NCBI GenBank assembly: GCA_019358915.1
Contig: JAHHIM010000006.1
Coordinates: 32,001 to 96,000, forward strand
Reading direction: 5' to 3'
DNA from: Trichormus sp. ATA11-4-KO1
GTDB taxonomy: Bacteria > Cyanobacteriota > Cyanobacteriia > Cyanobacteriales > Nostocaceae
Length of the DNA: 64,000 nt
The position numbers were made by a program, and so were the translations under genes. The notes below the pieces were generated by a model that saw only the letters and a list, made by a program, of their open reading frames with translations, was not told the DNA's origin and made no database searches. Positions 26,650 through 54,853 of this stretch are shown in pieces (positions within the stretch are counted from its first letter, which is position 1; each line of letters begins with the position of its first letter).

Positions 26650-26722
26650 GGGGGTTTAGCTCAGTTGGTAGAGCGCCTGCTTTGCAAGCAGGATGTCAGC
26701 AGTTCGAGTCTGCTAATCTCCA
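26650..26722 (+). tRNA. tRNA-Ala (anticodon UGC), CCA not encoded
   Basis: GGGGGTT..AATCTCCA acceptor with G3:U70, D-arm TAGCTCAGTTGGTAGAGC, anticodon arm CCTGC-TTTGCAA-GCAGG, T-arm AGCAG-TTCGAGT-CTGCT. Confidence 0.96.
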
Positions 26723-48992: not shown

Positions 48993-49467
48993 TAGTGGTA
49001 TCTCAACGTTTACCCCTTTTTTATCATTTTTAATATAGAAATATTATGTTTATGCGATCGCGCATTCCAAATATCACCAGCTATAAATCATACAAATTTT
49101 GGTTTTTCAGGAACTTTTATGGAGCATTCACAGAAAAGTGCCAGTTTAATAAACTGCGTAATCTAAAATTACTAAAGTTACGAAAGCCATACCTAAGTCT
49201 TTTAATTAACTTGAGTTTATTATTTTGGTTTATGACTATCTAAATCTACTAATACCGCCAAGTAATTTCCTTGTCCTTTGACCAATGCTATTTCATCTAT
49301 CCCTAACTTTTTTTTACCTGCTACCGAAAGAACCAGAAAACACATGCTCTTTTACTATGGAGATGTAGTTCTTGCTGCCGAGGTGCCGAAGACTGCAATA
49401 CCCCGAAGTCCAACATTGAAACCCACTGTCTGTTCGAGTTAGTAGTGGAGGACAAAATATTTTTATG

Positions 49468-49638
49468 AAAAAAAGAGTGAGAGGAGGCATACCAATCGCC
49501 TCTAGTCTCTCACTCTGGCATTTGCCACTGTAGAGCGCTCAGGAATATGTAGAGACGCTGCCCTTTATTTAGGGGGCTAACTGTATGTCAATGACAACGC
49601 CTATACACATCTAATATTCCTGGTGCGACAAATGCCAA
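49468..49638 (-). ncRNA. Candidate structured small RNA (three-way junction plus terminator)
   Basis: Stems GGCATTTG/CAAATGCC and CAGGAATAT/ATATTCCTG, two inner hairpins, then AGAGTGAGAG/CTCTCACTCT stem and T-run. Confidence 0.55.
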
Positions 49639-49849
49639 GCCTGATTATTGATGTTTATTTGCTAAAAAGAATAATCTACAAATTAATGGTAGATATAGCT
49701 TTTTTGTCAATAAATTTGGTTGATTATGCCTGATAACAAAACCTTTGGAGTTGTTTATTTTTTATAATTTAACTCAGTTGAATTCAGCTTGGTTGCCATT
49801 TTGGCAGGTTTTTAGATTTTATAATTTTTATTTATTAGCTTTTAAAAGC

Positions 49850-49952
49850 TATAGCAATCCTAAATGAGTCACGAACAAAAAGATCCCCGAATTCTTCGAG
49901 AATTCGGGGATCTGAGCCTCTCACTGTTTGCAAATCAAATAGGATTGCTATA
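49850..49952. mobile_element. MITE with TATAGCAATCCT/AGGATTGCTATA ends
   Basis: 12-bp perfect terminal inverted repeats; internal palindrome shared with 35116-35160. Confidence 0.8.
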
Positions 49953-49983
49953 TTTCTCATATCCTTAAGTAACTAACGGGACT

Positions 49984-50043
49984 TAGAGGATGTTTGTAAA
50001 TTATCCATTTATATTCGTCCAAAACTTTTCAAACACCCTCTTA
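49984..50043. mobile_element. Short MITE-like element (AGAGGATGTTTG...CAAACACCCTCT)
   Basis: Imperfect terminal inverted repeats flanked by TA/TTA. Confidence 0.6.
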
Positions 50044-50084
50044 GCACGGTCTTGGGGGTTTCCCATGAGCAACTAGCGTAAATC

Positions 50085-50121
50085 AGTAAAAATGATACGT
50101 AATTTACGTATCATTTTTACT
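50085..50121. terminator. Long perfect hairpin downstream of the 50161-50805 gene
   Basis: AGTAAAAATGATACGTAA-t-TTACGTATCATTTTTACT. Confidence 0.6.
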
Positions 50122-50160
50122 TAAAAGCTCGATTTCAAAGGTTTTTGTTTTACAGTTATA

Positions 50161-50805
50161 TTAATACTTCTGTAAAATTGCAGACAAAGAACTCTGTTTA
50201 CGAATATCCATCAAATCCGCCAAAGATTCTTTCCTTTGATCCAGTGGATGCCTATGATCTGGTGGTAGAACCGTCACTAGAGTCCTTGATTTAGCTCGCA
50301 TTTGGTTAATGGGCTTCAGTGGTTGCATCGGCACAAAAACTGGCGGACTCTTTAAAGTCATTGGCTCCCATTTTTCACGACTGCTTGGTTTCAAGGGTAT
50401 CGGCTGACGATCGCGTTTGATCGGTTTGCGAACTTTTTGACGCTGGTTGGGATGGTTGAGTAACCGGACAATGATGAAGCAACCACTTGCACAACTGAGG
50501 GCGATCGCCGCTACCATCCATAAAGGTGTGGCATTACTATTCTCAGAGGACGTTGTGATTGGTTTTTCAACTACGGCGGGAATTTCTTCTAGTTCTGCAT
50601 TGTCCCCACTGCCAGCGTAACCCAAGCTATACAAAGCTAAAGCAGCAGATCCAAGAAGCATTGTTAACAAACCAGCTAACAAAAGTCCAGGATGGTGTGT
50701 AAGCAGATAGATAAAAATGTTCGAGCTACCCATTACTCCTGACTTATCATTTGTCAGTTCCGTTACTTGGGTTGGCTCATACTGTACGCTCTGACTATGT
50801 TCCAT
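50161..50805 (-). CDS. Hypothetical membrane protein (2 TM)
   Basis: Two hydrophobic segments; C-terminal VTVLP....HPLD...SLADLMDIRK pattern. Confidence 0.75.
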   Translation of the reverse strand: MEHSQSVQYEPTQVTELTNDKSGVMGSSNIFIYLLTHHPGLLLAGLLTMLLGSAALALYSLGYAGSGDNAELEEIPAVVEKPITTSSENSNATPLWMVAAIALSCASGCFIIVRLLNHPNQRQKVRKPIKRDRQPIPLKPSSREKWEPMTLKSPPVFVPMQPLKPINQMRAKSRTLVTVLPPDHRHPLDQRKESLADLMDIRKQSSLSAILQKY

Positions 50806-50972: not shown

Positions 50973-52046
50973 CTATGATTTCGATTTGTTACCAGAATGC
51001 CTTTCTAAAGCTAGTTGAATTAACCGATCTACTAATTCTGGAAAGGGTATTCCACTGTAAGCCCAGAGTTGGGGGTACATACTAGTAGCAGTAAAGCCTG
51101 GTAAGGTGTTGATTTCATTAATCAATACTTCCCCAGTAGCTTCCACGTAGAAAAAGTCTACTCTTGCTAATCCCGCAGCATCAACAGCTGTAAAGGCTTG
51201 CAATGCCATATCTTGAATTTGGCGGCTGATGGCATCGGGGATGGATGCAGGAATCAGTAAATCTGCTCTCCCGGCGGTATATTTGGTTTCGTAATCATAA
51301 AAATCGCTATCAAAGGTAATCTCACCTACGATAGAGGCTTTAGTTTGCTCATTACCTAATACGGCACATTCTACTTCCCTAGCAACTACGCCTGCTTCCA
51401 CAATTAACCGTCGGTCATAACTAGCAGCATTATCTAAAGCCGCTTCTAATTCTTGGCGCGATCGCACTTTGGCGATACCCACTGATGAACCTAAGTTAGC
51501 AGGTTTGACAAAACAGGGATAACCCAAGTTTGCCTCAATTTCGTCACACAGTTTAGGAAACACACAAGGATTTGACCAAACTTGCGCTCTCGTTAACGCC
51601 TGATATTTCACCTGGGGTAATCCTGCTTGCTCAAATGCCGTTTTCATGGCAATTTTATCCATACCCATTGCTGAACCTAACACCCCAGAACCAACAAAAG
51701 GAACTTGCATCAAAGTAAGCAATCCCTGAATAGTACCATCTTCACCATTAGGGCCGTGGAGAATGGGAAACCAAACATCTACTGCGGTGACTTGAGGAGG
51801 TGATTGCCAAAGGCCAAGGGTGGAAGTTTGAGCTTCTAGGTACGGGATACCAGATTCTAAAACCTTTTGGGGTACTTCTCCTGCTAACCAATTTCCATTT
51901 TGTTGGATATAAAAAGGTAGGATTTCGTACTTACTAGCATTTTGCTCTGCACTTAAGGCTTTAGCGATCGCTCTTGCTGAACTAATGGAAACTTCATGTT
52001 CCCCAGAACGCCCACCAAATAGCAATCCCACCCGTAGCTTATTCAT
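50973..52046 (-). CDS. ddl: D-alanine--D-alanine ligase
   Basis: [29 protein letters not shown] and NEINTLPG motifs. Confidence 0.97.
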
Positions 52047-54624: not shown

Positions 54625-54853
54625 CAGGAGAAGAGTATTTTTATCAGTTCTTTTCCCTCGGCACCGCATCTCTTCTACTCAAAAATAAAAAATGCCCCAG
54701 AGTATTCTCTAGGGCTTAACCAGGGTGCATCTACCATTAATCTCTACTAGAGATAGAGGGTTAATCCGGAAAGATACTGAGAGAATACTAAAAAAATTTT
54801 TTGAGGATTTTTCTGCCTACAGGAAATTACGTAAGCAATCTAAAAATGTGTAT

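Follow-up and report, generated by a model that had tools for sequence, protein, structure and literature searches.

The minus strand of positions 49649-49468 in a 64-kb window (the whole stretch of DNA analysed; Trichormus sp. ATA11-4-KO1, contig JAHHIM010000006.1) is probably a stand-alone gene of a conserved structured non-coding RNA with an intrinsic terminator, likely a trans-acting regulatory small RNA (sRNA) that would be switched by a factor predicted to bind a palindrome upstream. Among the cyanobacteria examined, nearly all heterocyst-forming ones carry the RNA and none of the others does. It is a new RNA family of the sRNA type, with an earlier listing possible among the 409 novel conserved structures reported in cyanobacteria by the accessible part of one study (PMC12873609). 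All coordinates are those of the window, the window's genome is designated G000, and the RNA is read on the minus strand throughout.

The fold was derived from an alignment of 52 sequences less than 90% identical to one another (A2), made with MAFFT without structure input; the RNAalifold consensus was then counted on A2. Two of the 54 representatives were left out of A2 (L014:1136-1328, which has a 12-nt insertion, and L104:1706-1892). Standard pairs were found in 96.8% of 1805 cells, against 43.6-49.9% when the 3' partners were slid by 1-3 columns. Changes on both sides of the pair were seen at 20 of the 35 pairs (137 cells), and on every one of five measures 0 of 500 column shuffles matched the observed value. 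A 46-pair extended version of the fold was 92.1% paired, with both-side changes at 25 pairs. The minus strand of a 191-nt stretch gave a folding energy of -66.2 kcal/mol (z -4.71, equalled by 0 of 200 shuffles); the plus strand of the same stretch gave a z of -4.42.

Three helices, P1, P2 and P3, stack into one long hairpin, which is followed by the terminator hairpin. P1 (helix 1) comprises 10 pairs, 98.5% paired and changed on both sides at 5, with weaker extension pairs. The three core pairs of P2 were 100% paired, two of them changed on both sides, and an 8-pair version was 90.6% paired. P3 (helices 3 and 4) has 10 pairs in total, 9 with both-side changes. The terminator begins 1-6 nt past P1; its helix (helix 5) has 9 pairs, paired in 99.6% of cells and changed on both sides at 3, and its inner helix includes pair 178/193, which is AU in 26 sequences and GC in 23. 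The 3' end of the core is an intrinsic terminator, a hairpin plus U7, conserved with compensatory changes. Genome counts and match scores were obtained with a covariance model of the RNA, designated R1. The features of the core are as follows.

49468..49649, minus strand: conserved RNA-gene core, from the AATAAT box through the end of the U-run (R1 match at G000:C6:81468-81649 minus, 185.9 bits, E 3.9e-39; BLASTN homology begins at 49468)
49468..49474, minus strand: U-run (7 U) of the intrinsic terminator (from the sequence; T-run kept in the 52-sequence alignment)
49475..49515, minus strand: terminator hairpin, GAGUGAGAG / CUCUCACUC, plus an inner stem in which 3 pairs are well supported; its loop carries conserved UUGGUAUGC (covariation and alignment)
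49515-49507 (5') and 49483-49475 (3'), minus strand: arms of the terminator helix (consensus fold)
49517..49528, minus strand: 3' arm of P1, GUGGCAAAUGCC, paired with 49625-49636
49625..49636, minus strand: 5' arm of P1, GGCAUUUGUCGC, paired with 49517-49528
49540..49548, minus strand: 3' arm of P2, AUAUUCCUG, paired with 49614-49622
49614..49622, minus strand: 5' arm of P2, CAGGAAUAU, paired with 49540-49548
49553..49562, minus strand: 3' arm of P3, GGCAGCGUCU, paired with 49593-49602
49593..49602, minus strand: 5' arm of P3, AGGCGUUGUC, paired with 49553-49562
49563..49592, minus strand: apical loop (~30 nt), with near-invariant UUAGCCCCCUAAAU at 49567-49580

Near-invariant sequence outside the helices occurs in three places: the apical loop (UUAGCCCCCUAAAU, 49580-49567), the 3' internal loop (CGCUNCAG) and the terminator loop (UUGGUAUGC). 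Apical-loop columns T71-A85 are invariant or at least 90% conserved, and terminator-loop letters T159, A160, G162 and C163 are invariant in A2. The C-run lies unpaired within the large apical loop and is still invariant in relatives without GGG opposite. A sequence-only reading that preceded this analysis had proposed the outer pairings, which are present as it gave them: GGCATTTG (49517-24) with CAAATGCC (49629-36), CAGGAATAT (49540-48) with ATATTCCTG (49614-22), and the stem AGAGTGAGAG (49474-83) / CTCTCACTCT (49507-16), then 7 U on the minus strand (49474-49468). The three-way junction that it drew inside them was not borne out. The conserved fold is a single stacked hairpin, the inner hairpins GCCC..GGGGC and TGTAT..ATACA are not conserved, and in their place stands the conserved inner helix of AGGCGUUGUC (49602-49593) with GGCAGCGUCU (49562-49553), which leaves the C-run unpaired.

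Complementarity between the segment 5' of P3 and the 5' part of the apical loop was observed in about 12 of the 52 sequences (A2 columns 37-53 / 63-79; window ~49603-49619 / 49581-49592), in the lineage-specific versions UGUGUA/UACACA, UGCGUA/UACGCA and UAUGUAUA/UAUACAUA. Either a pseudoknot or an alternative helix may underlie this complementarity. In a partner-swap test of the pairing, matched partners did no better than mismatched ones (270 of 2000 permutations).

The strand was assigned from two observations. G-U pairs are frequent in the minus sense only (for example UG in 26 of 52 sequences at pair 61/99 and GU in 19 of 52 at pair 55/108), and full-length R1 matches scored 140.8-203.2 bits in sense versus 26.0-42.7 bits on the opposite strand at the same places (88 of 152 loci covered). 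Together these argue that the minus strand is the RNA strand. The surrounding gap, which had been described as free of a convincing open reading frame (ORF), holds none longer than 65 aa between 48992 and 50161. No conserved reading frame was present among the 52 sequences: the longest sense ORFs were 3-42 aa long and shifted in position, and an ATG frame terminating at the loop's TAA was found in 8 of the 52 only. A small-protein gene was ruled out, no frame being kept in place and phase across these sequences.

Distribution was determined with R1 and BLASTN. Within the window's family, Nostocaceae, R1 matched 145 of 151 genomes, representing 65 of 68 genera. In an order-wide sample it matched all 7 genomes of the family and, outside it, none of 143 genomes (37 families); across a phylum-wide sample the corresponding counts were 15 of 17 and none of 133 genomes from 28 other families. 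Conservation and covariation had been named beforehand as checks on the proposed RNA, and both were found: besides the both-side changes at 20 of 35 pairs, BLASTN detected the RNA in 33 of the 36 further genomes searched from this GTDB family, and in 0 of 24 genomes each representing another family of the order. Among the three family genomes missed by BLASTN, G026 was positive by R1, and G004 and G005 were negative. A pattern for the terminator region, run over one genome per prokaryote species, returned at least 119 stretches. Names among the matches listed were Nostoc, Nodularia, Dolichospermum, Anabaena, Cylindrospermum, Scytonema, Fischerella, Stigonema, Mastigocoleus, Calothrix, Umezakia and similar. 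Also among the matches listed were three metagenome-assembled genomes labelled Leptolyngbyaceae or Chroococcales, one of which shows Nostocaceae synteny. There were no matches among 2.9 million viral contigs.

Conservation extends beyond the core. BLASTN homology resumes upstream at 49729-49826 in most loci, and on the minus strand the order is an A-run, a palindrome, 21 nt, TAAATT, 0-4 variable nt, a conserved block, a variable spacer, an AU-rich stretch ending in AATAAT, and the core. The length of about 170 nt given by the sequence-only reading falls short of the conserved unit, which continues a further ~170 nt upstream and takes in the palindrome and another -10-like box, better conserved than the first; at its longest the RNA may thus measure ~290 nt here instead of 170 nt. 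The AATAAT that it had noted at 49644-49 on the minus strand is present and conserved in relatives. The upstream features are as follows, the palindrome counts being taken from the 137 copies with enough upstream DNA.

49794..49806, no strand assigned: palindrome TGCCA-N3-TGGCA, predicted transcription-factor site (exact in 123/137 copies; centre ~41 nt before the predicted distal start)
49766..49771, minus strand: distal -10-like box TAAATT (spacing to the palindrome fixed; predicted start near 49759, RNA ~290 nt)
49727..49759, minus strand: conserved block, consensus AGAUAAACGACUUCAAGGGUGUUGUUAUCAGGG, predicted 5' end of the longer transcript (BLASTN, anchored profile and alignment)
49650..49726, minus strand: spacer or leader, variable in sequence and length (poorly alignable across genera)
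49644..49649, minus strand: proximal -10-like box AATAAT (9 nt before the P1 core, CAUUUG; predicted start near 49637, RNA ~170 nt)

An ungapped profile was built anchored on the palindrome (116 distinct sequences), and a profile anchored on the right for the proximal box (123 sequences). Information in TAAATT is highest at hexamer positions 1, 2, 5 and 6, as for a -10 box, and the length variation of 0-4 nt occurs only downstream of it. At the proximal AATAAT, A1, A5 and T6 are at least 90% conserved. The distance from palindrome to core is 99-249 nt, most often 184-189 nt. Across 77 sequences the spacer folds into lineage-specific hairpins (mean z -1.7 against mononucleotide shuffles; z below -1.5 in 40), and where only one side of a pair changes in a Nostoc leader subgroup of 11 sequences, G-U pairing is preserved in the minus sense; on these two grounds the leader is likely transcribed in the minus sense. 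RNAalifold on block B found the palindrome itself as the sole structure on either strand. Transcription would start at the distal site (near 49759; ~290 nt here, ~330 nt in most genomes), the proximal site (near 49637; ~170 nt) or both. Centred near -41 of the distal start, the palindrome would be an activator or repressor site.

The same palindrome occurs at 26 sites in the genome, compared with ~3.5 expected from base composition, and several of these fall in AT-rich intergenic DNA. One of them, C55:313118, repeats the A-run, the palindrome and TTAAAT, and borders a ~1.25-kb stretch without an ORF of at least 70 aa. The sites hint at a small regulon.

In some genomes the RNA is duplicated together with its upstream region. 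A full-length copy was present at 149 of 149 loci examined, 177 copies in all. Matches were single in 93 of the 145 positive genomes and two or more in 52, with a maximum of 9; multiple matches are tandem or represent one extra locus. The array at L157 (G020:C1:9072800-9079000) comprises eight complete units repeated every ~570 nt, all of them with a palindrome of their own, and a ninth palindrome with a more typical leader lies at one end of the array; R1 gives 9 matches in G020. A diverged paralogue class was found at the second loci L153 (G015), L154 (G148) and L155 (G022), scoring 121-131 bits. These paralogues retain the palindrome, the TAAATT box, the C-run loop (CCCCCCUAA kept; loop UUACCCCCCUAAUU), the terminator and the near-invariant unpaired stretches of the core, and carry TAAAAT or TAGAAT at the position of the proximal box. 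The palindrome precedes each unit of the 9-copy array as well as the paralogues. The whole unit (palindrome, -10-like box, leader, core and terminator) is duplicated into tandem arrays and second loci.

Neighbouring genes were surveyed at 108 loci of at least 2 kb. The RNA is syntenic downstream of a D-Ala-D-Ala ligase gene (ddl) and a gene for a 214-aa membrane protein. In the window both genes lie upstream on the minus strand (ddl at 50973-52046, then the 214-aa gene at 50161-50805). A homologue of the 214-aa protein was the same-strand upstream gene in 50 of the 108 loci, with a D-Ala-D-Ala ligase beyond it in 12. The 214-aa protein is proline-rich, is predicted to be a membrane protein and adjoins ddl across the family; neither it nor two small ORFs (63 and 68 aa) had a Pfam or NCBIfam match. 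Downstream, an alpha/beta hydrolase on the opposite strand was found in 64 of the 108 loci at a median distance of 110 nt. Here the window's synteny breaks exactly at the RNA terminator: homology with other genera extends no further than the U-run (49468), the segment 49357-49460 is common only to a same-genus genome, and the convergent hydrolase and small membrane protein of most relatives lie on another contig (G000:C55:261014-262475). The upstream gene has its own terminator.

49881..49913, minus strand: terminator of the upstream 214-aa gene, separating that gene from the RNA unit (perfect palindrome, 15-pair hairpin then T-run)

A second perfect long palindrome downstream of the 214-aa gene (50085-50121, AGTAAAAATGATACGTAATTTACGTATCATTTTTACT) gave noise-level Rfam matches only. 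A single match to NsiR1 (RF02399, 52.1 bits) lies 5 kb from the RNA, at 54686-54736 on the minus strand between lgt and a tetrapyrrole methylase ORF; no NsiR1 array was detected in the window at the gathering threshold.

Three observations mark the RNA as a gene of its own: the upstream-gene terminator (49913-49881), the hairpin and U7 of the core, and the end of homology at 49468. Since the upstream gene is terminated and homology stops at the U-run, the RNA is neither a 3' extension of the upstream gene nor a leader of a downstream one. The sequence-only reading had offered two interpretations. Its stand-alone minus-strand sRNA with its own terminator is upheld by conservation, covariation and strand asymmetry. 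Its riboswitch controlling read-through into 49320-49460 was not supported: homology to other genera stops at 49468, the downstream gene is convergent in 64 of 108 loci, and the next element in arrays is another copy. A cis-regulatory leader was likewise rejected in general, as what follows the RNA is the convergent gene, another copy, or, here, DNA unshared outside the genus.

A working mechanism was assembled from these features. The RNA would be transcribed from the distal or the proximal -10-like box, or from both, and would end at the U-run. A transcription factor would bind TGCCA-N3-TGGCA and so activate or repress the RNA gene. The RNA would act through the single-stranded UUAGCCCCCUAAAU of its apical loop, most likely as a seed pairing with mRNAs, and the terminator loop UUGGUAUGC may contribute. 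Trans-acting regulation via the C-rich apical loop is thus put forward as the most likely mechanism and is held loosely. LhrC and RsaE, multicopy sRNAs of Firmicutes, combine C-rich unpaired loops used as seeds with tandem amplification and a dedicated stress regulator site upstream, and their loops (UCCC) pair with ribosome-binding sites. The parallel is one of function only, the organisms and sequences being unrelated, and CCCCCU might pair in a similar way here.

Several points weigh against this account. A scan of one genome for 9-mers complementary to the loop gave 611 matches genome-wide, without pattern and at chance level, and CCCCC does not match the usual ribosome-binding sequence GGAGG without a mismatch. 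Two conserved loops and an internal loop fit a protein- or ligand-bound RNA equally well. The distal and proximal starts fit the data alike, the proximal box being of moderate information content, and the start, end, abundance and expression of the RNA are predictions. A both-side change was seen in just 1 of 40 leader pairs of the Nostoc subgroup, whose 11 sequences are too similar for covariation. The palindrome together with the GTTTTT after it also resembles a terminator when the plus strand is scored, and it need not be a protein site.

The conserved apical, terminator and internal loops could instead be recognised by a protein, the RNA serving as a scaffold, a sponge or part of a ribonucleoprotein; this was judged unlikely. 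The three near-invariant unpaired stretches, kept in paralogues, are more than a single seed needs, no target emerged from the single-genome complement scan, and the RNA is nearly universal in the family with usually one or two matches per genome. However, no partner gene is linked to it, the genes around it being ddl, the convergent hydrolase and that of the 214-aa membrane protein, which belongs to no known family, and up to 9 tandem copies with regulated-looking promoters are more typical of stress-induced pairing sRNAs. A riboswitch-like sensor, in which a P1-P3 aptamer would decide terminator formation and so set read-through (for example antisense into the convergent hydrolase) or the amount of short RNA, was considered quite improbable. 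Such a sensor would account for a terminator starting 1-6 nt after P1, for the highly conserved internal and apical loops and for the convergent gene that 64 of the 108 loci have downstream, at a median distance of 110 nt; on paper the P2 3' arm (UAUUCCUG) can pair with the terminator 5' arm, and in about 12 of the 52 aligned sequences the apical loop can pair with the segment 5' of P3. These alternative pairings nevertheless lack covariation beyond G-U (matched versus mismatched partners 270/2000, not significant), and there is no multi-helix junction or proven pseudoknot. Nor does a gene on the same strand follow: within arrays the RNA is succeeded by a further complete unit, promoter-like block included, and here the RNA is intact though the hydrolase is on another contig.

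Division of the unit into two divergent small genes, with the 170-nt core running leftwards from AATAAT and a ~100-nt plus-strand RNA over 49727-49759 ending at the palindrome (49793-49807) and a T-run, appeared more doubtful again. The terminator-like score of TTGCCATTTTGGCAG then GTTTTT on the plus strand, the conserved A-run before the palindrome (a plus-strand T-run after it) and the varying palindrome-to-core distance (99-249 nt) speak for it. Yet no conserved plus-strand -10 box precedes the block, whereas the minus-strand TAAATT keeps a fixed spacing and has its information distributed as in a -10 box, and the one-sided leader changes keep G-U pairs in the minus sense. Beyond its 5 invariant pairs the palindrome stem pairs inconsistently on either strand and without covariation, and on that ground it suits a DNA site better than an RNA stem. 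Least credible, to the point of being negligible, was a mobile or selfish repeat without its own function, such as a satellite or an element like a MITE (miniature inverted-repeat transposable element). Tandem arrays in some genomes and a break in synteny right after the element in the window's genome would suit it, but copy number and synteny contradict it: the match is single in 93 of 145 genomes, and the element keeps its place after ddl and the 214-aa gene. Moreover, no terminal inverted repeats were seen, the helices covary while the loops are invariant, and none of the 2.9 million viral contigs carries the element. Copy number had been named in advance as the check for a MITE; the window's genome holds one copy, and the RNA is on that account not a MITE.

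Known RNAs were compared with this probable regulatory sRNA. Closest to it are the sRNAs specific to the heterocystous clade, none of which resembles it in sequence or by model, and it is much larger and more structured than they are. Rfam 15 at gathering thresholds returned only a tRNA (26650-26722) and NsiR1 (54686-54736) in the whole window, and under permissive filters (E up to 10) 11 weak matches were obtained in 49000-50200, none overlapping 49468-49650. The Rfam search that the sequence-only reading had suggested therefore gave no match at 49468-49650, in agreement with its view that the RNA is none of the common ones; the genome's 6S RNA lies elsewhere. Identity with 6S RNA (RF00013), normally one gene per genome, was rejected: the genome's own 6S is at C10:128274-128457 (113.5 bits), and the RNA has no 6S match at E up to 10. 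The two share a similar length and a long irregular hairpin, but this RNA has a large apical loop, no central bubble and a separate terminator hairpin.

NsiR1 (RF02399) was also rejected, its only window match being the one at 54686-54736 and there being no sequence or model similarity to the RNA. Accessible portions of two studies describe NsiR1 as tandem arrays of direct repeats with a promoter for each unit (PMC3610870, PMC9045159) and as dependent on HetR (PMC9045159). As far as those portions go, both are small non-coding RNAs of heterocyst-forming cyanobacteria only, with their own promoter (predicted here) and terminator and with tandem arrays, whereas the motif upstream of this RNA is TGCCA-N3-TGGCA, in contrast to the HetR dependence of NsiR1. 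Against the ~60 nt and simple fold of NsiR1 stands a core of 180 nt whose three helices covary, and most genomes yield one or two matches to this RNA rather than twelve. Yfr1 carries a conserved single-stranded CACUCCUCACACC in the text available (PMC4734099), and on that description it resembles the RNA in having a helix-flanked, conserved single-stranded stretch taken as the functional region and a Rho-independent terminator. Yfr1 is, however, ~55-65 nt long and phylum-wide, whereas this RNA is three times longer, confined to one family and has a different motif.

Published lists were searched for an earlier description. For Nostoc sp. PCC 7120, 327 sRNAs have been predicted, with sequences in Table S3 (Brenes-Alvarez et al. 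2016, PMC4734099). They resemble this RNA in having a start site and a Rho-independent terminator and in being conserved among heterocystous strains, and the table includes entries of 169-344 nt confined to the heterocystous clade. Sixteen RNA-specific motif strings (loop, terminator arms, terminator loop, palindrome and leader) gave no match in Table S3, carriage of the RNA by PCC 7120 not being established; the short string CCCCCTAAA gave 4 matches, all in unrelated sequences. In the accessible part of the Nodularia CCY9414 transcriptome report, Table 3 names only tmRNA, 6S, ffs, rnpB, Yfr2 and NsiR3 (PMC3610870). Full-text searches of the literature for the loop motif and the palindrome returned unrelated papers, and keyword searches, judged mostly from abstracts, gave no description of such an RNA.

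Bacterial multicellularity and oxygen-tolerant nitrogen fixation have their main model in heterocyst-forming cyanobacteria, and the clade-specific sRNAs NsiR1, NsiR3, NsiR8 and NsiR9 each opened part of the regulation of this clade. The present RNA is as widespread in the clade as those four (145 of 151 genomes), is far more structured (20-25 covarying pairs), and brings three near-invariant unpaired motifs together with a sharply defined candidate operator. A larger picture, distinctly unlikely in its entirety, would make it a clade-defining RNA of heterocyst-forming multicellular cyanobacteria that arose with the family: a dedicated factor would act at TGCCA-N3-TGGCA (26 sites versus ~3.5 expected), and P1-P3 would sense a ligand or protein and choose between termination and read-through, so that one RNA would be both a sensor and a trans-acting regulator. 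Being widespread and structured yet absent from Rfam 15 and from one genome-wide sRNA prediction for the clade (PMC4734099), the RNA is a ready experimental target, for which the covariance model, the coordinates, the predicted sizes (~170 and ~290-330 nt) and the palindrome are direct experimental handles.

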